A DNA stretch of 64,000 nucleotides from Methanobacteriota archaeon. Its GTDB lineage: Archaea > Halobacteriota > Bog-38 > Methanoflorentales > Methanoflorentaceae. The stretch spans positions 2,240,001-2,304,000 of the forward strand of contig OY970393.1 of NCBI GenBank assembly GCA_963720465.1. The letters run 5' to 3'. Positions 17,235 through 63,339 of the stretch are shown here, one piece after another; the stretch's first letter is position 1, and every line of letters starts with the position of its first letter. Under the pieces are notes generated by a model. The model was not told the origin of the DNA. It saw nothing but the letters and a program-made list of their open reading frames with translations, and made no database searches. Position numbers and translations under genes: made by a program.

Positions 17235-17353
17235 ACTCGTGCTAGGCTCAAAACAGGCAGGAACACTTACTTTCTTCGCCAATTTTGATAATGTTATATC
17301 CTCTCGAACCCATTTATTAAGAAGAACGTCTAGATCAGCAAAGGAGTCTGGTT

Positions 17354-18825: not shown

Positions 18826-18992
18826 ATTTGACAAAGATATGTTTTGTTTAACCGCAAAAGCGATTCTTAGCCTGATTTGCCGTTTTTTCGATAAATTATA
18901 AAAAAAAGAAGAATTGATTTTAGCGTTATTTATAACACTGTTATAGGTGCTATAACTCTCACTTTTATAAAAAAAGCATTAAGAAAAAATGT

Positions 18993-19529: not shown

Positions 19530-20115
19530 AAGATAGGTTTTGTATCTTAAAGGTTGTCATTTTGGTCTTCTTTACGATGAGATCCTCCTAGTTTATACAA
19601 TGAGGACAATTTTGGGCTAACTGAAGCACTTTTCCAATAATTCAGTTTTTATAAAATAGTGAATATTTAATTTGATTGTGATTCCCATGGATTTCGTGAG
19701 TTTGTATGTTAAGCCATCTTTCAGGTTAACGAGAATGGGTTGAAACAAAAGTGAGAGTTGAGCCTGTCTATCTCCAGACAGCTAGGTATTTTCTGACAAG
19801 GCATCTTGGGTATTGCCTATCAATATTTGCGTCAGAGATTCGTGGCTCCGGTACCGCCGAAGTTTTTGGAATGACTAGTAAGACCAGCTCTTGAAAACAA
19901 CCTGCTGCTGACCTTCGTAACAACGTCAAGTCCGCACAAAGGAATAGGTAGCAAGTGAAAGTGAGAGTTAAATGGCGGAGCTGATGAAGCCGGAAACCCG
20001 AGCACTTCTACAGGTAGATTAGGCGGTAAACGCAAGTGCGGGTGCATAGAAGCAAAAGTGAGACTAGAGGTAAGTCCTTCTTGTTCGCCTTTTTGCTGAC
20101 CGGTCGCGTGCTGCG

Positions 20116-36580: not shown

Positions 36581-36654
36581 GCCGAGGTGGGGTAGCTTGG
36601 TTATCCTATGGCCCTGTGGAGGCCACGACGCGGGTTCGAATCTCGCCCTCGGCC
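36581..36654 (+). tRNA. tRNA-His(GTG); integration target
   Basis: GCCGAGG/CCTCGGC acceptor stem, C73 discriminator, TGGCC-CT-GTG-GA-GGCCA anticodon arm. Confidence 0.93.
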
Positions 36655-37016
36655 TTTGATTTTCTCTTTTTATGCTCGTAAGGGAATTCTTTTGAAAAAA
36701 GAGCTTGTTTAAGTTGGCTGATCTCGAATTCAAGAGAAGATAAGCGAGATTCGACGCCATTTGGGCTATCCGGTTGTATAACTTTAGGCAAAAGTTGTAT
36801 AACTTTTGAATCGGGTTGCGCAATTTCAGACTCTGCATCCTCAGCCTCGTCGTCGAAAGTGACAAGAAGTGCCCGTCTGTCATGGTGCTGAATCTCAAAT
36901 ATCTTTGCAACCTTCCCAATTTCGTCTGCGCAGGTCTTTGGCAGCCTAATAAGCGGGTAAACGACGCCCGCTTTGGCATTCAACTTGGTGACCTTCGATT
37001 TTCCCAGATAATGCAC
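36606..37016 (-). CDS. Integrase N-terminal fragment (intN): AbrB-like segment plus coiled coil, running into att
   Basis: Ends ...KSKAEGEIRTRVVASTG across att, in frame with intC; GTG start at 37016 inferred. Confidence 0.8.
   Translation of the reverse strand: MHYLGKSKVTKLNAKAGVVYPLIRLPKTCADEIGKVAKIFEIQHHDRRALLVTFDDEAEDAESEIAQPDSKVIQLLPKVIQPDSPNGVESRLSSLEFEISQLKQALFSKEFPYEHKKRKSKAEGEIRTRVVASTGP
36611..36667 (+). repeat. att site (left copy of the 57-bp direct repeat)
   Basis: gccctgtggaggccacgacgcgggttcgaatctcgccctcggcctttgattttctct, identical to 58517-58573. Confidence 0.96.
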
Positions 37017-37153
37017 AACGATTCCCCGTTTCGATTTGCGATAACGAGATTTCATTCGGGCTAATAGAATAATAACCTGTCTGGAGGCGCGTACATCGGA
37101 TAAGTGAAATTGTGGCGTCACGCATCACACGGTTTTAGCTTTGCCTGAAAAGT

Positions 37154-41784: not shown

Positions 41785-42239
41785 TTGCCCTCAAAGAGCA
41801 ATTCGATTTCAACCGCTGACGCCCACGACAAGCACCGAGAGGGTGCCTAGCACCAACACCATTTTTAACCTAACCTTTCTCACTTGTCCACCCCTTAATC
41901 GAAGAGGTAAAAGGGCGGCGTGATAGCTTAAGTGTTGTCTTTTTAGCTGCGCACGTCTCTCCACAAACGCTTATGCGCGGCCGGTAGAAAAAAGAAGAAA
42001 AGTGCTGGTCTAAATTTATCGGTCCGGCTGTGGTATCTCATCTAATCTAACGCAGTCAAACCGGTTATGCGTCGCATCTTAGCGTAGCTATCCGCGATAG
42101 TGGCCTCTAGCTGCAGGTGCATCGTGCCCGCCAACGCAGTGATACTCTTCGCCACACGCATTTAGCGGGTCGACGTGGCTGATGGCATTATTGCAGATGG
42201 TCTAACAGGTGATGCTCTGACCCCGTCGGTCGGTCATAC

Positions 42240-42872
42240 CTACGACTGTGTTACCGTAGTCATGATGAAAAATTGGTCATACTGTATGTATTCGTTGTCA
42301 ACGCCAGCAGACTCGCCAGTCCCCTTGAGGTAAGCATCATTAACTGTGGTTGGAGCGTGTCCTAGCGCTACGGTCGCCGCTTGTTGTCCGAAGTGCGTAT
42401 TGCTTCCCGTATCTGGCACATCCCCAGAAACACCTGTCGATAATGACTTAAATAAGCTGCTTGCGGCGTCTGTGCTTCCTTCGTTTCGTATCTCTGCCGT
42501 TGTAGTACGTCCGTTTGATTCGAAAGTAACGTAAACGGCGTCAAAGCTAATGTCGTCTTTCGCCCTCTGTGTAACCGCGTCGCTTCCATATTCGGTTTTA
42601 AGCGTCGGCACCAACTTAGCGAGCAATGGGTCAAAACTAGCCGAAGTCGTTGGTGTAGCCGTAGCCGTCGGTGTAGCTGTCGGAGCTGCTGTCGGTGTAG
42701 TCGTCGGTGTAGCCGTCGGTACGCTGCTGGCTGACGGGCTTGGGCTGGTGGTAGCAGGCGACGTGCAACCACTAATTGATACGAGAACGAGAGAGCCGAT
42801 AAAAAGCAACGGCAATGCATATTTGAGCGGCGTTCTGATATACCGCTTCATCATCCTAGTTATTGCATTCAC
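42240..42872 (-). CDS. Predicted lipoprotein with Pro/Thr linker
   Basis: Lipobox ISGC followed by a PT-rich linker; paralogue of 43907-44500. Confidence 0.78.
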   Translation of the reverse strand: MNAITRMMKRYIRTPLKYALPLLFIGSLVLVSISGCTSPATTSPSPSASSVPTATPTTTPTAAPTATPTATATPTTSASFDPLLAKLVPTLKTEYGSDAVTQRAKDDISFDAVYVTFESNGRTTTAEIRNEGSTDAASSLFKSLSTGVSGDVPDTGSNTHFGQQAATVALGHAPTTVNDAYLKGTGESAGVDNEYIQYDQFFIMTTVTQS

Positions 42873-43149: not shown

Positions 43150-43812
43150 ATGATAAAAAAAGTGTTAATGGTTTGCATCGTTCTTACGCTCGTGACCGTT
43201 CTGGTGGGCGTGGCTGGCAGCATCCAAACACAAACCCCCAGTAACCCATCGACGGCCGCGCATGCGACGACCGTTCTATCTTACGCACAACCTACGAACG
43301 TGCTATCGTACGCGCTACCGACAGCGCCACCCGCGAACATCCAGTCGTATACCGGCCCGTTCGTGGGAAGCATTAATTCGAACGTCTACCACTATCCGTG
43401 GTGTTACGAAGCCGCGAAAATTAAGCCGGCGAACCTCGTTGTCTTCCCCACAGTGGCGGCCGCCTGTGCCGCAGGTTACCGACCGTGCAAGGTCTGCGAT
43501 CCGCCAGCGTGCGGTGCGCCTGCGCCAACGGCCACGCCAACGGCTACTCCAACGGCCACGCCAACGGCTACTCCAACGGCCACGCCAACGGCTACTCCAA
43601 CGGCCACGCCAACGGCTACTCCAACGGCTACAGCCAAAGTGGCGAGCCCTACTGCCAAGCCAGCACCTATAGCGAGCACTGCTGCTGCGAACGTCGCTCA
43701 AGCCAGCGCAGCTGCGGGCAGCAGTAGCTCGACTCCCGGTTTTGAAGGGTTGTACGCAGTTGGTGCTCTTGCTGCCGTGTTTCTGGCATTACGGATCGCC
43801 CGCCATCGCTGA
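43150..43812 (+). CDS. PGF-CTERM surface protein with Ada-type metal-binding domain and PT repeats
   Basis: Signal peptide; GSINSNVYHYPWC...GYRPCKVCDP; (PTAT)n; TPGF followed by a TM helix and basic tail. Confidence 0.88.
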   Translation: MIKKVLMVCIVLTLVTVLVGVAGSIQTQTPSNPSTAAHATTVLSYAQPTNVLSYALPTAPPANIQSYTGPFVGSINSNVYHYPWCYEAAKIKPANLVVFPTVAAACAAGYRPCKVCDPPACGAPAPTATPTATPTATPTATPTATPTATPTATPTATPTATAKVASPTAKPAPIASTAAANVAQASAAAGSSSSTPGFEGLYAVGALAAVFLALRIARHR

Positions 43813-43906: not shown

Positions 43907-44500
43907 CTAAGACGATGATGGAGATGTGGTAATGTAAACAAAGATTTGATCGTCCTGTATGTACTCGTTATCGAAACCTGCCCAGTCTCCTGTTCCTTTA
44001 AAATATGCATCATTAACTGTGCTTGGCGTGTGTCCTAGCGCAACAGTAGCCGCATCTGAGCCGATATGCGACTCAAGTGAGGGAGTTAATACCGTGCTGT
44101 TATTAGGCCCTGATGATGGGTCTGCTTGTGTAGCGAAATCTGCGCTCGCTTTGGCGATGCTACCGTCGTTAGTAAACCATACATTCGTAACTATAGAGCT
44201 GTTTGCTTTGGGGGTCATATAAATCTCATTAGCCCCACCAGAAGCATTCATTCGACCTATTAACCAAGTACTCCCATATTCTGAGTTAAGTGCCGTCTGC
44301 AACTTAACAAGTAGAGGGTCAAAACTACTCGTCGTAGTCGTCACGCTAGGCGTTGCGCTAGGTGTCGCCGTCGGATTGCTCGTTGATGATGTGCAACCGC
44401 TAATTGATACAAGAGCGAGAGAGCCGATAAAAAGCAGCGGCAACGCATATTTGAGCGGCGTTTTGATATACCGCTTCATCATCCTAACTATTGGATTCAT
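43907..44500 (-). CDS. Predicted lipoprotein (paralogue of 42240-42872)
   Basis: ISGC lipobox; shared FDPLL and ATVALGH.P.TVNDAY.KGTG...DNEYIQ.DQ segments. Confidence 0.78.
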   Translation of the reverse strand: MNPIVRMMKRYIKTPLKYALPLLFIGSLALVSISGCTSSTSNPTATPSATPSVTTTTSSFDPLLVKLQTALNSEYGSTWLIGRMNASGGANEIYMTPKANSSIVTNVWFTNDGSIAKASADFATQADPSSGPNNSTVLTPSLESHIGSDAATVALGHTPSTVNDAYFKGTGDWAGFDNEYIQDDQIFVYITTSPSSS

Positions 44501-44795
44501 TGATTCATCCCCCTTATAAGTAAAAACAAATACGTGAGACGGGGTCAATGAAGCTTAAGCGTTGTCGTTTGGCTGCGGTTAGTTTCTCCCCGCACGGATA
44601 GCCCTCTTTACACTGGAGTTCATGAGATGCAAGCGTGATGATCAACGATTGCGTCGAGGTCGACGAACTCATCCTTGAAATCGCCGACTACAAAAACGAC
44701 CTTGCCGACGTGGCCGCCGGGCACTGCTTAAAAGTCACACGTTCACGGCGATAGCAACCGCCGTTTTTAAAAATTTGAAAAAAAAGAGATGCAGG

Positions 44796-46892: not shown

Positions 46893-47147
46893 TCACGGGG
46901 GGCAGCAAATAATCGATCTTCTGACGCGGAGAATCTTAATATACCGTAGCCCTGCCAGTCTGCGAACCCTGTAATAGAGTTCCTGATAGGGAGTGGTATG
47001 GAACTCTTTGTTGAGATCGGCAAGTGACACGCACTCTATATTATGACCCATAGAAAGCCCCGGAGTGAAACGGGATCTCCAGCAAATCCGAGTTATGAGT
47101 TCCTCATCGAGTTCATTGATTTTGTTTTTGTTATTCACCTTCATCAC
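46893..47147 (-). CDS. Small winged-helix-like hypothetical protein
   Basis: 84 aa ORF overlapping the primase stop; LYYRVRRLAGLRYIK. Confidence 0.45.
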   Translation of the reverse strand: MMKVNNKNKINELDEELITRICWRSRFTPGLSMGHNIECVSLADLNKEFHTTPYQELYYRVRRLAGLRYIKILRVRRSIICCPP

Positions 47148-49155
47148 CTTCTAACAAGAGCGGCTTTCCACCGGTTAGGTTCAAAAAGATTGAAGCTGTC
47201 GGGGATAGGCCGTTCACGATCTCGCTGAAGCGTCGCGCGAGGGTAATTCGCAACTTTCTGTCAGCGCCCCGTATGTTGTGCCTATCACAATACTCAGCAA
47301 CTGTGACATTACAAAGTAGTTCTGACGCCATAGATCCCTTCAAATCGCTATCAGCCAATCGCACAAGCTTTTCGCACACGAAGCCTTCGAAATCAGCCTG
47401 CTGGATGATCGGTGCCGGATCTGGCTCAATTTGCTCACCGCTAAGAGGGTCTGGAGGTACGCCTAAATCCCGCAGACGTGCAGTTTGCAGTGCGGCTGAC
47501 AGAGATGACGGATCTGACAGTGTTTTGCGTAAACTCGTATATGCACTCAGATTTTCCACATGGGTTTTACTCAAATTGCCCTCAAATCCGTCAGGTCTAT
47601 CAGGCCTGACGATCTGCTCCATGTAAGGGTCTATCTCGTACTCTATTTCCTCCCAAGTGTCTGGGATGGTCAGACCTTCATAAACGCTGCCGCTCTCGGT
47701 ATGCTTGCTAACGAAGCCTAGTTTTTTCATAGTTCGGCCGAAGTTCGCAACGCTCAACATTTCCGCTTGTATCGTGCGCTGGAACTCTCGTGGCATCGTC
47801 TCAGCAATGCTTTTGAACCGCTTATGCAGTTCGCTCGCACCGATCTTGGCGCCATCTTTCTTCTCGCAGTGCCCGTCTATGAACCACGTGAGCGGGTTCA
47901 TCGTGCGCTGATATTCCTTTGTGGCTGCATTAACTTCGGCAGGCCGCTGCAGACCGTGCTCACGCCACTCAAACGCACCGTCGACGATCCACGCGAATAT
48001 AGCCTCTCTTTCCTCTGCGTCGGTCATCAGCTTTTCAAGCACGCTCTTGTCTACCTTTTCAAGCGGCCGGTTGAATACGATCACGTTAAGCCTGTTGAAA
48101 TTAGCCTGATCCTCAAAGTCGATCTTAGCCATGAAGTTCGATTCAAACCAAAACGTCGCCTTTACAGTCACGTCGTGCATATAGCGATCATACAAATTCC
48201 TGACGTGTTGTGGGTTTGCCGACGTGAGGCTCTTAATGAGAGCATCATCTATTACGAACCCTTTGGGCAGCTCGGAACACTGCGCGGCTCGTAATCCTTC
48301 CATATCGATAATATCTGGGCGTGCTGAACTCGCCCGTGCGCCTTTCTTCATAAACGTCGAGTAGTGGAACGCGTGGGCATAATCACCTAACACGCTGAAC
48401 GCGGGGTCGAGCACAGAGCTCTTGCGCCCATCAGGTATCCCGTACAAGAAAAGGAACGCCTTCTCCTCCATCGTAAAGATACAGGAATAGCCGAATGCAT
48501 CTTGCAAGAAAAATACGACGTCTGCCGGGAGGGCACCGAACAACGTGTCATACCATAATTGGCCCTTCGCATCGGAGTTGTAACGAACTGGGCAGACCTT
48601 CGTAATAAGGTCTTCGCGCCTGTGTTCGCGCACAGGCTTGTCGCGGGGGCAATTCTTAAAGTCTATCGTGCCGCTCAGGCAGTTCAGCAGATTCGGATCG
48701 CCGTTGAGCTCACGTGGCTCTACGACGATCCGATCGTCAGATTCAGCCAACGCGATCATGGCAGCAATGCGGTATTCGCTCTCCGACTTAAAGGCCCAGT
48801 TTTCAATCTCCTTTTGCTTTGCCTTCTGCTCTTTCGTGTCGGCCTTGTCAACAAACGCTGCCTCGGCGTGAATGAGCTTGACCCGTTGCTTTGCGATCTC
48901 TTTGATCCGATTGGTAGTGTCTACAACCCACTGAACGCCGTTCCAAATATACCAAGTGTTTTGAGTCGGGCAATAGCGGATATTCGCACCACAGTCTGCT
49001 ACGAGCCTCAAGGCGTTGCCTAGGTCGGTTAAGTGAAAGTCACATGTGACCCTTAGGTTTTGCTGCTTACCTTCAACAGGATCAACAATGGGCAAGAACA
49101 TCTCTCGCCCGGTGTCTGAGTACCCAGCTTCTGCGCTCACTGCGGATGCCTCCAC
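47131..49155 (-). CDS. P4/D5-family primase-helicase (SF3) replication protein
   Basis: TDLGNA, WY.WNG..W, LLNC.SGTID and LITK motifs; Walker A variant GIPDGRKS; SE and ESN motifs; C-terminal winged helix. Confidence 0.9.
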   Translation of the reverse strand: MEASAVSAEAGYSDTGREMFLPIVDPVEGKQQNLRVTCDFHLTDLGNALRLVADCGANIRYCPTQNTWYIWNGVQWVVDTTNRIKEIAKQRVKLIHAEAAFVDKADTKEQKAKQKEIENWAFKSESEYRIAAMIALAESDDRIVVEPRELNGDPNLLNCLSGTIDFKNCPRDKPVREHRREDLITKVCPVRYNSDAKGQLWYDTLFGALPADVVFFLQDAFGYSCIFTMEEKAFLFLYGIPDGRKSSVLDPAFSVLGDYAHAFHYSTFMKKGARASSARPDIIDMEGLRAAQCSELPKGFVIDDALIKSLTSANPQHVRNLYDRYMHDVTVKATFWFESNFMAKIDFEDQANFNRLNVIVFNRPLEKVDKSVLEKLMTDAEEREAIFAWIVDGAFEWREHGLQRPAEVNAATKEYQRTMNPLTWFIDGHCEKKDGAKIGASELHKRFKSIAETMPREFQRTIQAEMLSVANFGRTMKKLGFVSKHTESGSVYEGLTIPDTWEEIEYEIDPYMEQIVRPDRPDGFEGNLSKTHVENLSAYTSLRKTLSDPSSLSAALQTARLRDLGVPPDPLSGEQIEPDPAPIIQQADFEGFVCEKLVRLADSDLKGSMASELLCNVTVAEYCDRHNIRGADRKLRITLARRFSEIVNGLSPTASIFLNLTGGKPLLLEGDEGE

Positions 49156-49874: not shown

Positions 49875-50783
49875 TCACAAAAGCCCCTGTGCATCAAGCC
49901 AACACTTTAGCATTTCTTCGGCGTAGTCGGCAAGACGTATGCCGTATGCGTTAAGCCGTTTGATTAGGTTAGGGTCGGTCACTTTATGCCCGTCGATAAC
50001 AACATGATCGATTTCGGGGCCCCAATCATCTTCTTCGTCGGAATCTTCTTTCGGTTCTTTTTCTACGCGCGATGGGTCACGTATTGCACCAAGCTCCTCA
50101 ATGAGCTCTTCTTTCGATAGGTCTTTATTGAGGAGTGCCACACCTTCGCGTTCTGGCAAGGCCCCTTTCTCTCCGGGCTTTAAACCTACGTCAACTTTGG
50201 CAAATTCATTTGCAAGCTCGACCTCTTCCTCCGGCGTCTTTGCCTTTTTTCGTATTTTTTCGGCTACTTTCTTTGCAACCGCTCCTGCCTCGACCAGTTC
50301 CCGAGTCTCAGGTTGCAAGCGCAACGGCTCTAGCCAACGATCGACTGTAGTATCAGTCACCCCTAGGCGTTTGGCTAGTTCGCGTTCCGTATATGTTGTT
50401 TCGCCGTGCCCCGCGCGCGGGGTAGCATAATCCTTTAACAACTCGTTTTGGCCTAACAATTGAGCTATAGCGATTGCTTTATCTAAGGGTGCTAGGTTGT
50501 GGCGGGCGATGTTCTCAGAAAGAGAGGCGACTATCGCCTCGGTATCAGTCATCTGCCGCACTTCGCAAGGGAGCGTCTCCGCGCCTGCCTTTTTTCCAGC
50601 GTTAAATCTCGACTGCCCTATAACAACCTCAAATTTCCCGTTTACACGTCGCACTGTGAGAGGTTGTATTACGCCGAGCGACTTTATGTTCTCATCGAAC
50701 GCCTTGTGAACAATATTCGTTTTTCTTACGTTGAAGTCGCTAACCTTCAATAGTGAAACCGGAATTTCTACTAAATTACTCAT
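49875..50783 (-). CDS. ParB/Srx-domain protein with HTH
   Basis: NVRK, GVIQPLTVR, IGQSRF and ENIARHNL motifs; TERELAKRLGV HTH. Confidence 0.9.
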   Translation of the reverse strand: MSNLVEIPVSLLKVSDFNVRKTNIVHKAFDENIKSLGVIQPLTVRRVNGKFEVVIGQSRFNAGKKAGAETLPCEVRQMTDTEAIVASLSENIARHNLAPLDKAIAIAQLLGQNELLKDYATPRAGHGETTYTERELAKRLGVTDTTVDRWLEPLRLQPETRELVEAGAVAKKVAEKIRKKAKTPEEEVELANEFAKVDVGLKPGEKGALPEREGVALLNKDLSKEELIEELGAIRDPSRVEKEPKEDSDEEDDWGPEIDHVVIDGHKVTDPNLIKRLNAYGIRLADYAEEMLKCWLDAQGLL

Positions 50784-52237: not shown

Positions 52238-52357
52238 TCAGTCAGCCGACGAGTTGAAACAGACTTGTCTCCAGTATTTTTTACATACGTCATAGACGTG
52301 CCGGGCAGCGGATGCTTGTAGTGCTTCCAATCGACTCCGCTGACCCGTGCGTAGGAT
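52238..52357 (-). pseudogene. Integrase 3'-end relic D (most decayed, with indels)
   Basis: Translates to (ILTHG)VSGVDWKHYKHPLP-HVYDVCKKYWRQVCF. Confidence 0.88.
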
Positions 52358-52572
52358 CTAAAGGGTTTTCCTTCCTTCTTCTTCGTTCCCGCACCCTAAG
52401 TTTTTCCAAAAACATAGCGAAAGCGAGATAGCAAGGGCTAAGCATGAGTTTGCCTAGGCTCCAGCTTTGTTAATTTCCTAAAGAGATTTGCATGCGTTCG
52501 CCCACGCTTACAACGCAACTAATAACGTCTTGCCGGGCAAAGTTAAAAAAAATTTAGACTGCAAGAGTTAAT

Positions 52573-53598
52573 ATGCCCGCCATAATCAATGTCGAGCTCG
52601 ACCCTGAGAAAATATACGACACAGGAAAAAAGCTTCTCCAAGACATTTATGCAATAAAAACTGCACGTGCAGCTAAGAATGATAAAGACAAGATTGAAGG
52701 TTTCGAAAGAGGGATCAAAGAGCTTTCTATCACCAGTATTGAAATAATCACTTTTTTCGAATCTTCGACCAAGTTGCAAAACGAATTAATCGATGACCCG
52801 ACAGGCTTGGCAGAAAAGTTGCAGGCATCAGCAACTGCAGCCCTGCGCGAGCCACTGCGCAAATATGTAGACGAACGTTCTTCGCAAGAACAGCGACATT
52901 CTTTGCAACAGCAGGTTAATAAGTGGGTTCATATGCCGCCTGAGGCGTTACAAAGAGAACTCGAACTCACCGAACTTTTGACTTCTGGCGCCAATAAAGT
53001 CAAGATAGACGGCAAGAGTATCAAACCTGACCAATATTTAAAGAAACTAGCCAAAGAGACGACAACGCCACTGATCGCGGAATATGGAAACGTGGGCAGA
53101 CCGAGAAGTGAGACGCCAGAGATTCATTTTAAACTTATCGGCAAAGCTTACAGTTCGGAGCCAGTGAAGAGTTTGCTAATCATGGCAGCGACTGAAACAA
53201 ATGTGCCTGAAAAAGAGAAATTGTGTGAATTGGCAATAGATGAGTTTATCGTCACTTACGGGATCTTGCAAATGCAGCTACTACTAAAAGAGTGGCAAGA
53301 TAATGTCACACTGATTGGCAAGCTGATCGCAGAATTAGACAAGTCAACGCGCGAAAAAGTCGTTCATCAATTCATGCTAGATCATCCAGACGTTTACGAA
53401 AAATTCAAAAAGCTATACAACGATCTACAATTGGAAATTCCGAAAATCACTCTGCCGCTTTCAGCGACGGGCAATCGCGACGCGATCGTTTGGGAAGAGT
53501 GGAGGTTAATGGCCCTCATCGTTCAGTTCATGCAACACGTGAGACAGCATGCCGATTTTGTCAGCGAATCGATAACAAAAGCTAAAATTAACTCATAG
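52573..53598 (+). CDS. Hypothetical helical protein (cargo)
   Basis: 341 aa ORF. Confidence 0.65.
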   Translation: MPAIINVELDPEKIYDTGKKLLQDIYAIKTARAAKNDKDKIEGFERGIKELSITSIEIITFFESSTKLQNELIDDPTGLAEKLQASATAALREPLRKYVDERSSQEQRHSLQQQVNKWVHMPPEALQRELELTELLTSGANKVKIDGKSIKPDQYLKKLAKETTTPLIAEYGNVGRPRSETPEIHFKLIGKAYSSEPVKSLLIMAATETNVPEKEKLCELAIDEFIVTYGILQMQLLLKEWQDNVTLIGKLIAELDKSTREKVVHQFMLDHPDVYEKFKKLYNDLQLEIPKITLPLSATGNRDAIVWEEWRLMALIVQFMQHVRQHADFVSESITKAKINS

Positions 53599-53613
53599 GC
53601 TTCAAGGGTTTTC

Positions 53614-53646
53614 AAAGTGAGCTAGAGCGTACGATCTCACTTTTTT
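53614..53646. terminator. Hairpin/T-tract between convergent genes
   Basis: AAAGTGAG-N14-CTCACTTT followed by a T-run. Confidence 0.45.
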
Positions 53647-53684
53647 ACCGATCGCTCCCGGCAAAAAAGCGTCATTCACCACCT

Positions 53685-54056
53685 TCAATTTTCGCGTTGT
53701 TTAAGACCATCTTTAAATAATATAGCTTGAGTTAAGAAAGAGTCAGTTTTTTCACTTCTGTCTTCATAACTCGATGTAAGTCTTTCAATGTTCGGAACAT
53801 CACCTAGTCGGATGAGTTCGTTGATGCAAGTCGTCTCTTCTTTTCGACAGTTAGTCACCAATTTTATCAGCTGATCAACGATCCCAGCAATATCATCTAC
53901 TGGTGCTCCGCTCGCATCTAACTCATGTGCTTTCCTAAAAAGCGCCTTTCCTTCCTTTTGGGCTTCCATACACTTCGCTAGAGCATCTTGATAACGCTTC
54001 AGCCAAAATACGCGTTCTTCGTCGCCTTTCATTATGCCACCTTGCTGTATTTGCAC
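53685..54056 (-). CDS. Hypothetical helical protein (cargo; start likely ATG ~54032)
   Basis: 123 aa ORF with AGGTGG RBS-like sequence. Confidence 0.55.
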   Translation of the reverse strand: MQIQQGGIMKGDEERVFWLKRYQDALAKCMEAQKEGKALFRKAHELDASGAPVDDIAGIVDQLIKLVTNCRKEETTCINELIRLGDVPNIERLTSSYEDRSEKTDSFLTQAILFKDGLKQREN

Positions 54057-54162
54057 TGACTGCTTCGATAAAGCTTCCGACTAACAACGCAAAACAACTT
54101 CCGCGCACGAAGCTGTATGGCCAGATTGAGTTATAACTCGCATCGAACGTCGATAGGGGCCC

Positions 54163-54283
54163 CTACCAACTCTCGCACCCATTTATCAGGAAGTTGATTT
54201 TGCGCCACGACTGCATATACACGCCAAACACGTGCTCCGGCAGCGGATGCTTGTAAAACCGCCAATCGACACCCGATACCCCG
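54163..54283 (-). pseudogene. Integrase 3'-end relic C
   Basis: Translates to GVSGVDWRFYKHPLPEHVFGVYMQSWRKINFLINGCESW*. Confidence 0.9.
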
Positions 54284-54347
54284 GTAAGGCGAGTGGGAAT
54301 CTGCAAAAAGAGGTCGGTCACGTTCACTGTCTAACGTTCAAAGCGGG

Positions 54348-54941
54348 TTACCCCGGCTGACCCAAAAAGAGTTTAATTACAGCGACAATGAAAGTCAGCC
54401 CAGCGAAAGCTACCCCTATAAGTGGAACGACAAGCGGGAGATTGAGATTCCTTAAACGGCCGGCTGCCTTCCCTTCTCCGACGAGCTGCTGAGCTCCTAA
54501 CAATGCTAACGCATCTAGTGATCTTCCTTCATTTGTGAGCCGCATAGCATGGATTGCTAAATATTGTGCAGCTACAGAACACGTTAAACCGCTATTCCTA
54601 AGCTTCCCGGCGGTTGAACACAGATCAACATATTCATTATATATCGATAGGGTCGAGGGCAGAGGGAGCGCCGTTTTTTCAACAAAGCGCCTCGAAATAG
54701 CATCATTTTCGCGCCTCTGTTTGTTCCTTCTATCTATGTAAACAACTACAAGCGGAACGGTCAGTAAAATGCTTATCGCTATAATCGTTTCTAAAAAAAG
54801 TGCATTAGAAACGCTGAGTGCTATAGAACTAACCGTCGTTGCAAGTGAAACAAGTGTAGCGATTACCGCAATAATTACGGCCACCCAGCTAATTGCAACG
54901 CTCGCTTTAGAGCGGGTTGAACCGCGTCTGGCTTCATCCAT
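54348..54941 (-). CDS. Hypothetical membrane protein, ~3 TM (cargo)
   Basis: Two N-terminal and one C-terminal hydrophobic helices. Confidence 0.65.
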   Translation of the reverse strand: MDEARRGSTRSKASVAISWVAVIIAVIATLVSLATTVSSIALSVSNALFLETIIAISILLTVPLVVVYIDRRNKQRRENDAISRRFVEKTALPLPSTLSIYNEYVDLCSTAGKLRNSGLTCSVAAQYLAIHAMRLTNEGRSLDALALLGAQQLVGEGKAAGRLRNLNLPLVVPLIGVAFAGLTFIVAVIKLFLGQPG

Positions 54942-55092
54942 AACAACCGTTGCCTGTTGAAGCTTCGTAGCACTACTAAAAACTTGTGAAATGTTTTTTC
55001 GCCGCAGGCTGTTTCTAGCGAAAAATTTTGTTTGCTTGTCATGGCGCTAGTCTGGCCATTCCTGAGTTGATGTGCTGCACTATTTGACGCAG

Positions 55093-55320
55093 TCAATGTC
55101 GGTTTTTAAAACGGGCGAAATCTACCTCTTCCCAACTCTTCATATAAACATCATAGACGTTTTCTGGCAGCGGATGCTTGTAGTGCTTCCAATCGACTCC
55201 GCTGACACCGTGCGTCATAATATAAGCCCTGTTTGACTGATCCCACCCGATAGCATCGCCATGCTGTTCGCAAAACTTGCGAAGGTCGCCTAGCACGAAA
55301 TGCCCTTTGAACTGCGACAT
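55093..55320 (-). pseudogene. Integrase 3'-end relic B (longest, ~70 codons, open frame)
   Basis: GHFVLGDLRKFCEQHGD..WDQSN..YIMTHGVSGVDWKHYKHPLPENVYDVYM. Confidence 0.93.
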
Positions 55321-55440
55321 AAGGATTTGCTGCCGTTTGACACATCAAAAAAGAACCATGCCCTCCGTTGCGACGCGACAGCTGACTAGAAAGAACGCTT
55401 ATAAGGCTGCAAAACGCTCTTTTTTGCGGTGGTAATCCAC

Positions 55441-55908
55441 ATGTCAAAAATACTGGTTGTTTATGAGTCGAAGTACGGTAACACGAAGCGTGTGGCTGAA
55501 ACGATCGTACAAGGGATGCGGCAGGTTGAAGGAATAGACCCGACGCTTAGTGACATCACAGGAGTTGACCCCAACACCATCCTTAACTATGACGCAATTG
55601 TGATCGGCGGCCCGAATCATATGGGCGGCCCTACGAGAGGCGTCAAGAAGTTTATCGATAAAATAGGCAAGCTCTCGTTAGCAGACAAGAAATTCGCGGT
55701 ATTTGATACCTACGGTGGGGGGGATTTTGAAAAGGCAACAAAGAAGATGGAGCAAAGAATGCACGAAAAGGCCCCTGCGATGAAGGCGGTGGCTCCCGGC
55801 TTGTCTATAAAGGTCGACGGGATGAAGGGCCCCATTAGTGAAGGGGAGCTTCCAAAGTGCGAGGAGTTTGGAGCGCAGATAGCGATGCAGCTGAAGGCTG
55901 CAACTTGA
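55441..55908 (+). CDS. Flavodoxin (cargo)
   Basis: VYESKYGNTKRVAE, IGGP and FDTYG motifs. Confidence 0.9.
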   Translation: MSKILVVYESKYGNTKRVAETIVQGMRQVEGIDPTLSDITGVDPNTILNYDAIVIGGPNHMGGPTRGVKKFIDKIGKLSLADKKFAVFDTYGGGDFEKATKKMEQRMHEKAPAMKAVAPGLSIKVDGMKGPISEGELPKCEEFGAQIAMQLKAAT

Positions 55909-56033
55909 TCACGCGACAGTGCGCCTCTCAAGTTAATTGCATCTCTCCTCATCCACGGCCGCAACACCGGCAGGCCGCGAACGCGAAAAGAGTGGCACGG
56001 TGAGAGGGTTTCTTTGTAATTGCACCAAAGGAG

Positions 56034-56361
56034 ATGAAAAACGTGAAGATAGGTATTATGGTCTATTCAAACGACCCTGAGACCATATGGAACGCCTTTC
56101 GATTCGGCAACTACGCGGTGAACGAGGGTGAGAACGTAAGGGTCTTCCTGTTAGGGAAGGGCGTGCAGAGCGAATCTCTTGACACTGAACAATTTCAAAT
56201 CACTCAGCAAATGCGCTCGTTCGTCGAGAGGCGGGGCGATAGCGGCGTGCGAGACGTGCCTTAAAATCCATCACTTAGGAGGCTCGGAGCTATGCCCAAT
56301 ATCGACCCTGGCCGATTTGCACTCTCTCGTAGTCGAAAGCGACAGGCTTGTTATCTTTTAA
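56034..56361 (+). pseudogene. DsrE-family protein, frameshifted near 56235 (cargo)
   Basis: WNAFRFG...VFLLGKGV in one frame; ACETCL...CPISTL.DL in another. Confidence 0.78.
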
Positions 56362-56470
56362 ATAGATTAGCAAAGCGAGTGCATTTGTCTTAAGATATCA
56401 CTATTAAATCAAAAAACAAAAAATAACTGAACCTTAAGCGACGCACAAACTAGATTTAGTCTGCGAATGG

Positions 56471-56758
56471 GTGGGAGGTGAGACATTGCAGAGCGACGAA
56501 GAACTGATGAGGTTAGCTCGAAAACGCGCTGAAGAGAGGGTCGGATTCTACATACACTTCACGATTTACGTAGTGGTGAACCTTTTCCTCGTCGCCGTGT
56601 GGTGGTTTACCGGTGCCGGGTTCCCGTGGTTCGTCTTTGTGCTCGGTTTCTGGGGAATCGGATTAGTTGCACACGGCGCGAGCGTCTTTATGGGGGGTGG
56701 AATGACGGATAGGATCACTGAACGAGAATATCGGAAACTTAAACGAGGCAAGGAATAG
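56471..56758 (+). CDS. 2TM-domain protein (cargo)
   Basis: ARKR...GFYIH..IYVVVNL...PWF...WGIGL..H pattern. Confidence 0.85.
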   Translation: MGGETLQSDEELMRLARKRAEERVGFYIHFTIYVVVNLFLVAVWWFTGAGFPWFVFVLGFWGIGLVAHGASVFMGGGMTDRITEREYRKLKRGKE

Positions 56759-56779
56759 CGAGCGGCCTTTTTAACTGGG

Positions 56780-56864
56780 CTAAGCGCCGAGTCTCACATC
56801 TTTCCAGTACTTCATGCAGACGTCATAAACGTACTCTTGTAGCGGATGCTTGTAAAACCGCCAA
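56780..56864 (-). pseudogene. Integrase 3'-end relic A
   Basis: Translates to WRFYKHPLQEYVYDVCMKYWKDVRLGA*. Confidence 0.88.
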
Positions 56865-56903
56865 ATTTGTTTATAGCGGCTGAGACTACTTCATCGACAA
56901 CCT

Positions 56904-57410
56904 ATGCCAATGATTCAAGAATTGCTGTCAGATCACAGTGCCACCATTCGCGAGATAATCAATGATGCTGCGAACGCGTACAAAGGCGTCATCCCGGATG
57001 ACCGATGGAAAGAGCCCTACATGTCAGCTGAAGAACTCACCGATGAAATAGGAGCTGGCGTTCGATTCTACGGATGGATCCAAGACGGCTTGCTGCTCGG
57101 TGTCGCAGGTATTCAGCACTTAGGTGACGTTGATTTGATCCGACACTGCTATGTGCGCACCGAATGCCAGAGTCGCGGCATAGGTGGTGCCCTGCTGCAA
57201 CACCTTCTGAGTCTTGCACAGGCCTCTCTGATCTTGGTGGGCACGTGGGAAAACGCGTCGTGGGCAGTTCGGTTTTATGAGCGCCATGGATTCGCGTTGG
57301 TTACGCGCGAGGAAACGAATGCCCTCCTGCAAGAGTCCTGGAACATTCCAAGGCGGCAAGTCGAAACATCGGTTGTGCTTAAGAAAAGACTTCCAGATTC
57401 ACTGAACTGA
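56904..57410 (+). CDS. GNAT family N-acetyltransferase (cargo)
   Basis: YV...QSRGIGGALL and AVRFYERHGF motifs. Confidence 0.9.
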   Translation: MPMIQELLSDHSATIREIINDAANAYKGVIPDDRWKEPYMSAEELTDEIGAGVRFYGWIQDGLLLGVAGIQHLGDVDLIRHCYVRTECQSRGIGGALLQHLLSLAQASLILVGTWENASWAVRFYERHGFALVTREETNALLQESWNIPRRQVETSVVLKKRLPDSLN

Positions 57411-57500
57411 GAGTCTTAAGCATCAAAAATGATCTTCTGGCAGCGAAAAACCTCAACCCTAAACTCGCGTGAAAAAAACTTGTAAGCTTCATACTAGAGG

Positions 57501-58532
57501 TCAGACTTTGAAGTTTACATCCCTCCAATACTGCATGTAAGCGTCGTAGACGTGCTCAGGCAACGGATGCTTGTAAAATCGCCAATCGACTCCGGAGACG
57601 CCGTGTGTGAGAATGTAGTTCTTGTTGCTTTGATCCCATTGAATGATGTCGCCATGCTGCTCAGCGAATTTGCGAAGGTCACCGCAGACGAAGTGCCCGC
57701 CATTCACTAAAGGAATTTTTTTCCTCCTCGCCCATTTGTCGAAGTATTCATGCGCAAATATGCGGGTGTCGTCTTTTCGATTTCTGCCGTCTAGAAGCGG
57801 TGTCACAGCGTCAACAACACAAGGGTGTAATGGCACATAGTGCTGCATCCTGATTTTATCCTGTTGCGGCAGCACGTCAAGCACCGAAGGATCGCGCCGT
57901 AGAGCGGCCTGAAACTGCCCGACGGTCAGTTTGCGGATGGTGGCGAGAGGGCGTTGCCCTGTGTATGCACTGAACAAAACAAGAGCCGTGTAGTTTTGGC
58001 GCTGTCGCGCGGTAAACTCATGGTTTTGACCGCCTTCTTCTATAGCGGATAGCAAATTTTTGATATCCTGTATCGTTGCAATACGTTGTGTTATCCGTTT
58101 GCTTTCCTTGACCGTTTTAGGCATCTCTAAAAACAGGTCAAACTCCTTATATCGCGTGTCGAACCGCGTCTTCGTGAGATAACGTAGGAACGCTTTGGCG
58201 AAGTTCAGCATCTTACGTTTTGAATAGATGCCCGTGTATTTGGTGAGAACGAATTCACGGAACGCTTCTATTCGTGCTTTGTTTATCACGCCCTTCGTGA
58301 CGTTCCAAAACGTCACCGAACACTTGTTAATCCATGGAATAGTCGCCGCAGTCACGCCTATACATCGAAACGCAGTGTAATCAGTGAGTTCTTCCTCTCC
58401 GTACTCAAGTTCGAGCGACATCAGGGATTGGTGATGCCGCTGGTCGGGTGTCTTCGGTTCCTGCTCTTCTGTGCTCGCACAAGTAAGCTCATTCTTGGGT
58501 TTATATTCAAAAAGCCGCCCTGTGGAGGCCAC
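57501..58532 (-). CDS. Integrase C-terminal catalytic fragment (intC), tyrosine recombinase
   Basis: YTGQR (R), DK, DLRK, THG and FY (Y) motifs; begins inside att. Confidence 0.9.
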   Translation of the reverse strand: MASTGRLFEYKPKNELTCASTEEQEPKTPDQRHHQSLMSLELEYGEEELTDYTAFRCIGVTAATIPWINKCSVTFWNVTKGVINKARIEAFREFVLTKYTGIYSKRKMLNFAKAFLRYLTKTRFDTRYKEFDLFLEMPKTVKESKRITQRIATIQDIKNLLSAIEEGGQNHEFTARQRQNYTALVLFSAYTGQRPLATIRKLTVGQFQAALRRDPSVLDVLPQQDKIRMQHYVPLHPCVVDAVTPLLDGRNRKDDTRIFAHEYFDKWARRKKIPLVNGGHFVCGDLRKFAEQHGDIIQWDQSNKNYILTHGVSGVDWRFYKHPLPEHVYDAYMQYWRDVNFKV

Positions 58533-58785
58533 GACGCGGGTTCGAATCTCGCCCTCGGCCTTTGATTTTCTCTCTTGGCGCTGCCGAGCTAGTGGTTTCG
58601 CAAAATTGCTGTGTCAGCGCGTCTATCTTTGACTCTAAAGACTCAAGACGTTTTTCTGTAGAGGCGTGGTCTTTCGCTGTATGCATGAGGGTATCTACTG
58701 CCTCACTCAACGTTTTTCCTTCACATAAGGCACGGGCTTTTAAGGCTGAATAAACATCTTCATCAAGGCGGACCATCTTCGACAT
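58507..58785 (-). CDS. Second intN-like ORF (RHH/antitoxin-like segment plus coiled coil) reading into att
   Basis: KMVRLDEDVYSALK...KTLSEAV; RLESLESKI coiled coil; GRDSNPR across att. Confidence 0.7.
   Translation of the reverse strand: MSKMVRLDEDVYSALKARALCEGKTLSEAVDTLMHTAKDHASTEKRLESLESKIDALTQQFCETTSSAAPREKIKGRGRDSNPRRGLHRAAF
58517..58573 (+). repeat. att site (right copy; 3' half of tRNA-His plus 13 nt)
   Basis: Identical to 36611-36667. Confidence 0.96.
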
Positions 58786-58931: not shown

Positions 58932-59166
58932 ACACGTCACTCTCTGAGGGGAAAATAAATCAAAAGCGTAAAAAGGCGGCGCGATAGCTTAAGTGTTGTC
59001 GTTTTGCTGCGGTCAGTTTCCCGCATCGATGAAAGGATTTGTTACGCGTGGACTCGCCGTAATACGAGCTAATTACAACAACGTTTATTAGAAAAGAGCG
59101 TAAAACTACTCAGTTTCAAAAATAGGCGGCCGTAAACTATTGCCGCTAAGTAGCTAGGAGGCGACC

Positions 59167-59838
59167 ATGAAAAAATATCTCGCCATACTCCTTATTGCGA
59201 TAATGGCCACCACGGTCCTGAGTGCTGCAGGCGTCGTGACGACGCAGAAGGTGGCGGCAGTCCCTTCATCCACTCCCGTTGTCGTTAAATATCGCCCAGG
59301 CGCGACGTACATCTTTACCCCGTCACAGTTTAATGTAAGAACTTCGGTTAATTTTGGGTCGCTAGGCTCGAAATCGTTTGCGGCAACGTTCAACAACGCG
59401 CTTCGCACGTACGCAATCACGACACAGATTGGACAAGCAGCACAAGGCGATGCACAGATAGGCATGGCCTGGCGGCTCACGCTGCCGTCGCACGGACCGT
59501 ATTCCAACTGGGCTTACGTGGTAACACTACCGTGCCGAGTTACGGTCACGTTGGCTTATGACGTTTCAGCAAATGGACCCAACATAAACACCTGCGCTAC
59601 AGCACGAGCACTCGTGGCGCATAACGCGCAAGGTGCTACCGTCTTCGGCAATGATCCCATACATACGCAGATTGGCATAAGGAGGCTAACCTTCGTAAGC
59701 AGCGTTGGACAAGTGTTTTCGTCTGGCGGCTTTGTTGGACTTGCGCGAATCCAAGCGGTAAGTCTAATGCAAGACGTGGGACAAGCACACGCGTCGCTCA
59801 TTTGCAGCAGCATTGTGCTCGAGTTCCCGGCCAGTTAA
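59167..59838 (+). CDS. Secreted beta-rich hypothetical protein (paralogue 1)
   Basis: Signal peptide; YRPGATYIF.PSQFN...IVLEFP; GGAGG RBS. Confidence 0.75.
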   Translation: MKKYLAILLIAIMATTVLSAAGVVTTQKVAAVPSSTPVVVKYRPGATYIFTPSQFNVRTSVNFGSLGSKSFAATFNNALRTYAITTQIGQAAQGDAQIGMAWRLTLPSHGPYSNWAYVVTLPCRVTVTLAYDVSANGPNINTCATARALVAHNAQGATVFGNDPIHTQIGIRRLTFVSSVGQVFSSGGFVGLARIQAVSLMQDVGQAHASLICSSIVLEFPAS

Positions 59839-60266: not shown

Positions 60267-60959
60267 TTAACCCAGCGCTTGTGGAAACTCAATTATGATG
60301 TAGTCAAGGTGGCAAACCGCTGAAGCACTGCCCGCAGACCCTGGCGGCCAATTAAATGGTATAGTGAGGACTTCGGCGCCAGGATTTGAAGCCATCGTCT
60401 CGCGAGTTTGAGGGTAAAAAACATCTCCCACCGTGCTTACAAAGGTCACCGTCTGCGTCCCGCTCTGTGCCCGGTTCTCTGAAAATTTATCCCACTGGGG
60501 ATTCCCGGCTGAGACGCTGACAGATGCCTCAGCCCCTCCCTTCGCTACTAGATTGTAACTCAGATGCATAGTTATCTTGCACGGCTCTTGAGAAAGTGAC
60601 CACCAGCTACCGCGCATCTGCACAAGAACCCCCGTCGTTGCCCAAGAAAGCGGACGGTAGCTCTGTTGGGCAGGGGAAACGCGCATTGCTGAGAACGCGA
60701 AACCGCTGAATGCGGCCTCTGAATGGACCCATCCACTCGCTCCACGCGTATTGTAACTTGACCCATCGTTATTGAACTGGATTGGCGCGAAGATGTACTT
60801 CGCCCCCGGCCTGTAGGCGATATCGATTGGCGTCGGTTGCGTGGACGCGGACGCGGCTGCGACCTTCGGCGACGTCGTTACGGCAATAGCACCGCAGGCG
60901 CTGAGCGCCATAATCGCGACCATCGCGGTGGCAATAACGGTTCTTCTTGTTGTGTTCAT
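60267..60959 (-). CDS. Secreted beta-rich hypothetical protein (paralogue 2)
   Basis: Signal peptide; YRPGAKYIF.PIQFN...IIIEFP. Confidence 0.75.
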   Translation of the reverse strand: MNTTRRTVIATAMVAIMALSACGAIAVTTSPKVAAASASTQPTPIDIAYRPGAKYIFAPIQFNNDGSSYNTRGASGWVHSEAAFSGFAFSAMRVSPAQQSYRPLSWATTGVLVQMRGSWWSLSQEPCKITMHLSYNLVAKGGAEASVSVSAGNPQWDKFSENRAQSGTQTVTFVSTVGDVFYPQTRETMASNPGAEVLTIPFNWPPGSAGSASAVCHLDYIIIEFPQALG

Positions 60960-61458
60960 TCATCCTCCCCGATGTTACCTTACTATCTCATAAAGACAAA
61001 GAAATCATAGAATCCGTTTTCTGTGAGCACCTGGCCAGCAGATGTCTCACACCCGCGAGTTCAAGCCTCAGCCGTGGCATGACACCCCCCCCGGTCCGCT
61101 CTGAAAGCCCCCCGACGCTTGTGCTGTGGGTTTGGCGGTTGCCGGCACGACAAGCACCGCTGAGCAGAGTAGCACGCTGATGACAACGAAGGCAGCAACC
61201 GCATATCTCTTCACCGTAGGTCACCTCCTCTTATCTTCTTTCATCAGGCGGCTGCGATGCTGCAACCGCCGGTGTTGACAAGCTAGAAATTATCTTGCTC
61301 TCACGCAATAAACGTTGTCGTTTCGGCTTTGTCAATATTGCGTTATTTTATCAGTTAGACGGTGCAATCCTCTTTTTTGGCGTAAAATCGGAAGGTATGA
61401 GCTTGTTGCACCGCTCTTTTTACGCAAAAATGGCGAAAGCCGATATATGGAGAAAGCT

Positions 61459-62102
61459 ATGAGAGGCAAAAAAGTTCTTGCCATGTTTTTAATCGCGCTG
61501 ATTGCGACGACGGTCGTGGCCGCTACCAGCGTCGTGACCACGGAAAAAGCCGCCGCGCAACCGGTCGACCCCATCATACTTTACAAACTAGGAATGACAT
61601 ATTTCTTCGGGCCGTCTCAGTTTAATGAACACTCTGCAGCGTCCGTAAGTTTGCCACCTGGTGCACGGGATTCGGCAACGAGCGCCGGTGGCCTCGTGTA
61701 CGCGTCGATTATCACGACGGCGCAAATCAGTGGGAGCCAAGCCTTAACTGGAATCTCCTGGCAGCTTAATCTAGCCGGGGCGGACTGGAGTACCGTCCAG
61801 GGCAAGACATGTACAATCACCGTCACGATGGTCTATCTTCTCCAAGCCAAGAGCGATTACTCTACTCGCGCGTCCGTGCAATGGATTGCCGCGGGGAACC
61901 AGCAAGATATTGTGCGAGGCAATAGCCAACACACTCAAAGCTAGTGATGACGACCTGGACGCGAACTACCACGGTCGGCTCCATGTTCAACAACGGGTAC
62001 GGAGAGAGCCGAGTCATGGTTCAGGCTATCAGGAACCCCGCAGGTGCGGGGCAGGCCTCTGCGACGGCACTTGTCACGGGCATGACGCTGAGATTTAACT
62101 AG
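61459..62102 (+). pseudogene. Secreted hypothetical protein (paralogue 3), frameshifted near 61942
   Basis: YKLGMTYFFGPSQFN; continues in another frame as ...TTVGSMF...GQASATA...MTLRFN*. Confidence 0.7.
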
Positions 62103-63040: not shown

Positions 63041-63339
63041 ACGTAAACGTCCTCCGTGCCTGCTTCTTCGACAGGCTTAGAAACAATACGTATATGTTCG
63101 GCTTAAGGTTGGCGTTTTTTGCTTGGTCGTTGTCGCCCCGAACGTAACTGCTCAAATTTTGAAGCTCACATCCACCCAGCATTTCATATATACATCATAA
63201 ACAGAATCAGGAAGCGGACGCTTGAGAAATCGCCAGTCGACTCAAGAAACGCCATGTGTAGGGAGTGAGCTTAGTGGTTCCCTTTTTCTATATAGCAGAA
63301 ACCTACCCGAAAAATCGTCAGTTTGCAGACCGATATGGG

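Follow-up and report, generated by a model that had tools for sequence, protein, structure and literature searches.

How does the gene of an integrase come to be followed by a row of broken copies of its own 3' end? The question is raised by a 64,000-nucleotide (nt) stretch of a Methanobacteriota archaeon genome from the family Methanoflorentaceae (contig OY970393.1, positions 2,240,001 to 2,304,000; hereafter the window), which holds a 21.9-kb integrated element at 36611-58575. At one end of this element lies int(C), one part of a split integrase gene, which we call intW; downstream of it, on the minus strand, four truncated integrase 3' ends (relics A-D) alternate with small unrelated genes (the cargo) before the element core is reached. 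We propose that repeated C-terminal displacement of an SSV-type integrase, brought about by one-sided homologous recombination together with illegitimate recombination, left this stack as its scar, and we put the chance of this at about even. In what we consider the best reading of the locus, displacement would act alongside tandem integration of elements.

The relics were detected by tblastn of the 343-residue IntC sequence against the window and with a DNA profile built from 14 full-length integrases. Both methods confirmed what an earlier note on this DNA had claimed, namely that relics A-D are real, lie in one orientation and each have their own tail and stop; they are 5'-truncated copies of the last 23-85 integrase codons (Table 1). 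The W-x-x-Y-K-H-P-L-P stretch is present in every relic. The relic coordinates given earlier agree with ours within a few bases, except that relic B extends about 40 nt further 5', and the spacings (721, 1672, 927 and 1935 nt) were reproduced. Relic D matches in two frames (52303-52344, residues 312-325, and 52256-52300, residues 327-341; E 2.4e-5) and is therefore frameshifted. The extent of the phenomenon had been underestimated: the four relics stand, but relic E had been missed; with it begins an older array of seven relics, the other six of which lie past the window's end. The truncation is genuine rather than a detection artefact, because intact unrelated open reading frames (ORFs), for a GNAT acetyltransferase, a flavodoxin and a 3-TM protein, occupy the DNA directly 5' of relics A, B and C, respectively. 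Between relics A-D there is no remnant of the element core or of IntN, the product of the other part of the split gene, and no further tRNA-His fragment in the window.

The resident gene itself is composed of two parts with different histories. Its body (positions 300-830) is 84-88% identical to four relatives, one each in genomes G011 and G018 and two in G032, and a tree of the bodies supports a W clade at 100/99. Its last 160 nt, however, are only 64-69% identical to those same four relatives and 82% identical to an integrase at position 330018 of the same genome, the body of which is 57% identical. Body and end are decoupled in other pairs as well, with bodies 91-93% and ends 71-79% identical (for example, 93% versus 71%). 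An alignment of the 3' ends rejects the body clade (approximately unbiased test, p = 1.7e-5, for a clade that was named after the identity tables had been seen). The gene closely resembles the W clade up to position ~828 and the integrase at 330018 from ~876 on; the breakpoint between them falls a little upstream of codon 317, where the nearest relic starts, and a single displacement event predicts this arrangement. This means that the resident integrase is a chimera with its last ~160 nt from another lineage, and that the full gene has been rebuilt, not lost, the tip having a history separate from that of the body. The nearest full copies of relic B come from other integrase lineages, and an 'original' W-clade 3' end was sought among the relics of the window, none of which is close. 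Relics within an array are only 66-78% identical over less than 100 nt, bar one stretch of 41 identical nt in relics D and B (52304-52344 and 55166-55206), the flanks of which are ~83% identical or less; gene conversion between relics or a recent common origin could account for it.

Units of tip and cargo recur elsewhere. Relic A together with its 2TM gene (56312-56864) has two counterparts of 89% identity, one being the 3' end of a full integrase with its 2TM gene in genome G006 (contig C11) and the other a relic unit of the 330-kb array in the same genome as the window, so that it is known in three contexts, one of which is a full gene. The last 18 codons of intW, with the spacer and the 3' end of the GNAT gene, form an internal relic in the G006 array, and the order of units there thus differs from that in the window. 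A third case is a 60-residue two-helix membrane-protein module, which is found with one tail type in four arrays of this genome; its relics have differing 5' ends and, among the four arrays, three different downstream junctions, and its end point is the same in all four and coincides with the end of the gene. Tip and gene are co-inherited in all three cases. The number of relics before the next full copy differs among the six W-clade loci, being 4 in the window and 0, 2, 2, 1 and 7 in the five relatives. The DNA common downstream of these six integrases is nearly all relic or integrase, none of it cargo common with the window; the exceptions are one stretch of 121 nt (G011 with G032) and one of 72 nt, neither involving the window. 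Variable numbers and orders of cargo-plus-relic units, for which the earlier note had proposed to look in homologous elements, were thus found. At loci L055 and L056, two metagenome contigs, the integrase is 90% identical at the DNA level and is followed, 126 nt on, by homologues of the two ORFs of unit C (79% over 1448 nt). In the window the same two ORFs stand 120 nt after relic C, and L055 and L056 have none of the 3.4-kb stack that lies between; compared in this way, the two loci appear to show the 'no stack' state before the cargo of unit C. Together with the chimera and the recurring units, they support the repeated gain of a new integrase 3' end, with the old end and its cargo left downstream, that had been proposed earlier.

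The 5' edges of the relics tell how units may have been joined. At the junction between the GNAT module and relic A, there are 3-4 nt of microhomology between the upstream region of the GNAT gene and integrase codon 317. Loci in G002 and G014 match the GNAT module (56863-57451) at 81-82% identity and have no integrase relic in 7-8 kb on each side, and the junction itself occurs in none of the 24 genomes searched; the 5' edge of relic A is, by this comparison, an illegitimate junction at the promoter side of the GNAT module. The junction between the flavodoxin gene and relic B is also non-homologous, with ~30 nt of unassigned origin. Third codon positions are not more conserved in the 3' end (0.57-0.58) than elsewhere in the gene (0.53-0.55), so nothing points to an embedded recombination site, and without added synonymous constraint ordinary homology pairing is enough for the pattern. 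Among the genome matches, the 5' ends of the relics are not concentrated at any single point; local peaks may reflect conservation blocks. The stretch was also found in four runs, as assembled contigs that break at repeats. One joint, from 52332 to 54240, was not counted, as it came from one run, had 30 letters on its shorter side and was 28 nt out of the register of the relic alignment.

The same asymmetry extends over the genome and the family, well beyond anything that chance would give. In the 2.31-Mb host genome, the DNA profile gave 65 matches, comprising 9 full copies, 3 with the 5' part only, 4 that are internal or 3'-clipped and 49 with the 3' end only; the last two classes make up 53 relic-type matches. 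These start only at profile positions 553-886 of 974, a scatter of ~330 nt, and none starts at 60-550. All 17 relics at the five related loci start past position 600, and the metagenome set (54 loci with 46 relic-type matches) has 43 starts at position 550 or later (37 of 40 once loci with identical match patterns are removed), the other three starting at 259, 315 and 500. Starts below 550 thus number 0/53, 0/17 and 3/46 in the three sets. At the metagenome loci, 43 of the 46 reach the 3' end and 44 of the 46 are co-oriented. The genome matches fall into 23 clusters, among which multi-match ones are co-oriented throughout (12/12, 7/7, 5/5 and 4/4), and in a cluster of 14 all but two members share a strand. 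Seven of the nine full copies have at least one co-oriented relic chained downstream. Matches occur in 18 of 18 relatives within the family, with 1-53 in each, and there were none in the 12 genomes searched from other families of the phylum. The relatives are uncultured metagenome-assembled genomes (MAGs), named Euryarchaeota or Halobacteriota archaeon, from sediment, soil and peat metagenomes.

The protein encoded by int(C) has a PHROG match to 'integrase' (E 1e-5) and was not recognised by Pfam, NCBIfam or a PDB sequence search. Its AF2 model has a mean predicted local distance difference test score of 74, and the PDB matches of this model listed by Foldseek (ranks 1-37) are all tyrosine recombinases, including Tn1549 Int, XerH, Cre, lambda Int and Flp, with probabilities of 0.69-1.0, E values from 1.4e-3 (none at or below 0.001) and TM scores of only 0.25-0.39. 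The model thus predicts the two-domain fold of tyrosine recombinases, with a core-binding and a catalytic domain. Residues R194, R287, H310, W317 and Y320 are invariant in an alignment of nine family members; their catalytic roles, with Y320 as the putative nucleophile, are presumed from the spacing in XerD-like enzymes. A scan of IMG/VR with the integrase alignment gave no relative.

The element is bounded by two copies of a 57-59-nt repeat (36611-36669 and 58517-58573). The target tRNA-His is intact at attL by ARAGORN and is thus restored by the element, and the flank to its left is syntenic with G011 and G018. Since the int(N) ORF reads through attL and IntC begins in attR (VASTG...), in the same frame as the end of IntN (...VVASTGP), the integrase has the architecture of an SSV-type (type I, 'suicidal') split gene with attP within the ORF. 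The end of IntN is 88% identical to that of elements of ~7 kb (L052-L054), and both IntC and IntN of these elements are 88% identical to those of the window, their interior being wholly different. The integration module is common to elements that are otherwise unrelated. The genes for the primase-helicase and the ParB-like protein in the core are each single-copy in the genome.

Table 1. Positions of the integrase parts, relics, cargo and other features in the window.
Feature	Position	Strand	Evidence or remark
int(C) = intW, intact catalytic part, 343 amino acids (aa), chimera	57501-58532	-	PHROG; AF2 and Foldseek; relatives of the body versus those of the 3' end
Probable recombination breakpoint interval in int(C), ~codons 277-293	57655-57705	-	Alignment
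Cargo of the presumed newest unit: GNAT acetyltransferase	56904-57410	+	Pfam Acetyltransf_10, 2e-11
Relic A	56773-56864	-	tblastn 56795-56863, residues 317-339, 74%, E 5e-7; plus tail
Unit A cargo: 2TM-domain protein	56471-56758	+	Pfam 2TM, 1.5e-20
Unit A cargo: two overlapping ORFs (76 and 60 aa), the 'DsrE' of the earlier note	56034-56361	+	No Pfam confirmation
Unit A cargo: flavodoxin	55429-55908	+	Pfam Flavodoxin_5, 1e-12
Relic B, residues ~260-341 and own tail	55109-55361	-	tblastn 55117-55305, residues 279-341, 75%, E 7e-29
Unit B cargo: 197-aa membrane protein (3-TM)	54348-54941	-	ORF; no significant Pfam match
Relic C, residues 311-343, own tail ...FLINGCESW*	54183-54283	-	tblastn 54184-54282, 76%, E 2e-13
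Unit C cargo: 341-aa ORF (+) and 123-aa ORF (-)	52573-54056		No family match
Relic D, residues ~309-341, frameshifted, adjoins the core	52249-52360	-	tblastn and profile
Relic E, residues 309-343, in-frame stop, outside the att-bounded element	63149-63261	-	tblastn and profile
tRNA-His (GTG), integration target	36581-36654	+	ARAGORN
attL, tRNA-His positions 31-74 plus 15 nt	36611-36669		59-nt repeat
attR	58517-58573		57 nt identical to the attL repeat (57/59)
int(N) ORF, at the opposite end of the element from int(C)	36606-37121	-	Reads through attL and stops there (...RTRVVASTGP)
Element core: D5/P4-type primase-helicase	47131-49155	-	Pfam D5_N, 8e-25; NCBIfam primase_Cterm, 6e-40
Element core: ParB-like protein	49875-50783	-	Pfam ParB_N, 9e-15
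IntN-like ORF, 92 aa, of a possible older neighbouring element (weakly supported)	58507-58785	-	Reads into attR in another frame

We infer a one-sided homologous step, a donor and an order of events as follows. The last ~100-350 nt of the integrase gene would be alike enough across otherwise unrelated elements to pair, and DNA of another integrase-bearing element, from the same cell or incoming, would recombine homologously within this conserved 3' stretch. The far end of the donor, past its tail and one to three cargo genes, would be joined to the resident DNA by microhomology, either through homology-facilitated illegitimate recombination or through break repair copied from an ectopic template. 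The integrase would thereby stay intact but acquire a different tail and different cargo, while the previous 3' tip, together with the cargo behind it, would shift one place downstream. Later homologous recombination between co-oriented tips could delete, swap or convert units, and the whole stack would travel with the element. Displacement of this kind would explain the asymmetry of the relics, the confinement of their starts to the conserved part, the chimera with its breakpoint, the microhomology junction and the small size of the units. Several observations speak against it. No event has been caught in the act, and only one junction is resolved with both parents known. Homologous recombination between tandem copies could make chimeric integrases without any displacement. 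At locus L045, a long relic of the W clade covers part of the resident gene's body at 84% identity; a second tandem element accounts for this better than displacement in a single step. In G018, the likely breakpoint falls downstream of where the first relic begins. Nor is the linkage of tail and cargo absolute, since the unit C cargo in L056 stands behind a different tail and spacer, and the co-inheritance of tip and gene seen for other units does not hold there. The shared end of the 60-residue module in four arrays is not predicted by random donor ends, although it is the end of the gene. Finally, no demonstration of homology-facilitated illegitimate recombination in archaea was found in literature listings.

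A different origin for the stack, which we judge unlikely although part of it clearly operates nearby, is that elements integrated one after another at the tRNA att site and that deletions later removed IntN, att, the 5' part of IntC and the redundant core, leaving the 3' relic and its adjacent cargo. Tandem structure is indeed present. An IntN-like ORF of 92 aa abuts attR with the seven-relic array beyond it, and on this ground the older array to the right of attR seems to be part of a neighbouring element; tblastn homologues of this ORF lie just upstream of att in G032 (L046; 48% over 84 aa) and G011, and BLASTP of this element's own IntN against it gave no match. In G032, seven full or near-full co-oriented integrases lie within 42 kb, with att fragments preceding four of them. 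The relic in L045, downstream of a W-clade integrase, is 84-86% identical to W-clade bodies; a relic at genome position 1538863 is directly preceded by a tRNA-His fragment; and in L048 (10056-10647) a W-clade integrase has an internal deletion that joins profile position 397 to 753 and is followed by seven relics within 6 kb. Module exchange by homologous recombination among tandemly integrated archaeal elements is described in part of a review of archaeal tyrosine recombinases (PMC8371274). Random deletions, however, should have their ends in the first 55% of IntC no less often than in the remainder, and only 3 of 116 relic starts were observed there; the units are only 0.3-2 kb long with intact genes. 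Over 400 nt of upstream DNA, a tRNA fragment accompanies 8 of the 12 full or 5' copies, compared with a single one of the 53 relic-type matches, that at 1538863. The core genes of this element are not duplicated in the genome, and Badel et al. (PMC7253208) report no tandem integration of suicidal integrases in Thermococcales or Archaeoglobales. The origin of the relics as remnants of tandem elements, which the earlier note had named as the rival of its own proposal, thus agrees with the DNA beyond attR and disagrees with relics A-D, which have no att or IntN between successive units. Tandem integration surely contributes outside the element.

The earlier note had itself favoured an integron-like system, in which circular cassettes recombine at a site. 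In its most specific form, circles of [int 3' end + cargo] would be excised and re-inserted, into the resident gene or into relics, by the integrase through a homology-dependent activity like that of Int-pTN3, so that cassettes move as units in a dedicated capture without attC. This we find doubtful, even though units do recur in several arrays in differing orders, the arrays are wholly different between integrases with 84-93% identical bodies, the 60-residue module keeps its 3' end, and direct repeats must loop out circles by homologous recombination. Moreover, Int-pTN3 recombines identical segments down to 104 bp (review text in PMC8371274), and a circular intermediate has been proposed for the tips of Rhs genes (in part of PMC2935791). 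The scattered relic boundaries, the lack of a conserved DNA site and the unconstrained synonymous sites speak against the proposal, however. A circle entering by one crossover would bring along its downstream junction, whereas the same module has three different ones; the edge of relic A at the GNAT module is a microhomology join found nowhere else among the genomes searched; and relics of the low identity and short length given above, bar the 41 nt, offer little substrate to a recombination that depends on homology. Circle insertion and one-sided recombination were also weighed on the relics of L044, L045 and L046, which are 70-86% identical. Since conservation along the gene is highest in its last ~120 nt, it could also be argued that dead integrases simply decay until they are recognisable by this part alone. 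This explanation has practically no chance, as it is already contradicted by the intact ORFs directly 5' of relics A, B and C and by the parental homology that stops sharply at the junctions of the GNAT module with relic A and of the flavodoxin gene with relic B.

The layout had been thought to lack a described precedent, but arrays formed by C-terminal displacement are known for Rhs genes (Jackson et al. 2009, PMC2935791) and for the effector-immunity loci of the Vibrio type VI secretion system (Kirchberger et al. 2017, PMC5361080), and homology-facilitated illegitimate recombination is the mechanism proposed for them in these two papers. In those arrays, as here, a full gene is followed by co-oriented, 5'-truncated 3' tips with their downstream gene or genes, the history of the tip is separate from that of the body, and new modules push old ones downstream. 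The present case differs in that the gene encodes the integrase of a mobile element and not a toxin, and in that the host is an archaeon. The cargo is miscellaneous (an acetyltransferase, a flavodoxin and small membrane proteins) rather than cognate immunity genes, and thus the selective logic of keeping old immunity does not apply. Furthermore, the stack would itself be mobile, and there are dozens of arrays per genome. C-terminal displacement has been described in bacterial toxin genes and, apparently, not in integrases.

The locus also resembles an integron, with a tyrosine recombinase gene beside a growing array of small genes, the newest unit nearest to it and units common to several platforms. 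Unlike in integrons, there is no attI/attC-like site, structured repeat or fixed crossover point; the only repeat between units is a fragment of integrase coding sequence, and the insertion point is inside the recombinase gene. Nor do promoterless cassettes share one orientation and a common promoter: cargo ORFs are found on either strand, and as far as the junction the GNAT and flavodoxin modules retain upstream regions of their own, with TATA-like boxes. 'Gene capture' by split archaeal integrase genes was reportedly considered by She et al. in 2001. The likeness to SSV-type integrases lies in the attP within the integrase ORF, the tRNA target and the split into int(N) and int(C). Hybrid suicidal integrases with parts of mixed origin are described in part of Badel et al. 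(2020, PMC7253208), with Int(N) and Int(C) joined at att; here, by contrast, parts are exchanged within the last third of Int(C), displaced ends accumulate, and the hosts are uncultured Halobacteriota/Euryarchaeota MAGs and not hyperthermophiles. Arrays of int(C) 3' ends are not mentioned in the passages available of that paper or of the review of archaeal tyrosine recombinases (PMC8371274), and literature searches gave no description of integrase 3'-end arrays, although supplementary tables (e.g. those of Badel et al.), which were outside the search, might list int(C) fragments. For Int-pTN3, chromosomal inversions between identical segments of at least 104 bp have been reported (Cossu et al. 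2017, as summarised in part of PMC8371274). It is an SSV-family integrase, and such short-segment recombination could act on integrase 3' repeats; the relics here, in contrast, are mostly 66-85% identical over less than 200 nt.

As regards the cargo of unit A, which spans 55429-56758 in all, the label 'DsrE' given earlier to one of its genes found no confirmation in Pfam. The two overlapping ORFs at this place suggest a frameshift, and DNA homologous to them is found in or near other arrays, such as between two relics in G011 (1770662-1771011). The flavodoxin gene, the 'DsrE' region and the 2TM gene are found at separate places in other genomes.

Around the integration site, further arrangements were seen. 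In G011 (contig C1, ~1197990-1203570), a 5.5-kb att-bounded 'array only' element sits at tRNA-His and contains an IntN remnant, four relics and a full IntC without a replication core. A second tRNA-His 3' fragment (52 nt, 98% identical) lies at genome position 1756359-1756486, remote from the tRNA gene and adjoined by IntN-like coding sequence; it could be an att left behind by another integration or by a rearrangement. Two types of flank were seen among L043, L044 and L048 (~9918-9973) and genome positions 330018 and 386179, and around tRNA-His both types are found with integrases of the same clade (bodies 84-88% identical). The flank as in the window holds the 3' part of tRNA-His, positions 31-74, in antisense, and the flank in G011, G018 and L048 holds its 5' part, positions 1-41, in the same sense, with IntN just upstream of the complete tRNA. 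Both classes also occur at tRNA-Asp, which suggests integration in either orientation around the anticodon loop. Elsewhere in the window, a 12-nt tandem repeat in nine copies lies within an element ORF (43505-43648). Five ORFs of 210-230 aa occur inside and outside the element (42240-42872, 43907-44548, 59167-59838, 60267-60959 and 61315-61944); the first two match each other and two further genome loci, the three at 59-62 kb have signal-peptide-like N-termini, and the three of the five that were tested had no Pfam match. Promoter-like repeats (41897-41944, 44524-44586 and 58957-59020) occur on both sides of attR. The host part at 17000-20000 has a GC content of 0.38-0.41, against ~0.52 around it.

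Were the integrase 3' end a genuine capture site, with Int-pTN3-like excision and insertion of circles of 3' tip and cargo, which we hold to be quite improbable, the arrays would be mobile attC-less integrons that trade small cassettes among the arrays of a cell and between cells. If the reading of repeated C-terminal displacement is right, the 3' end of a 'suicidal' integrase would be the seam along which archaeal elements exchange their integration module and accessory genes, and this would explain why such integrases are continually rebuilt from parts. The range of C-terminal displacement would then grow beyond bacterial toxin loci to take in a recombinase gene and the archaea. With ~50 relic units in this 2.3-Mb genome, the arrays would constitute, for an uncultured archaeal family, a large and readily recognisable reservoir of recently mobile small genes, and the relic stacks would record the order in which they were acquired.

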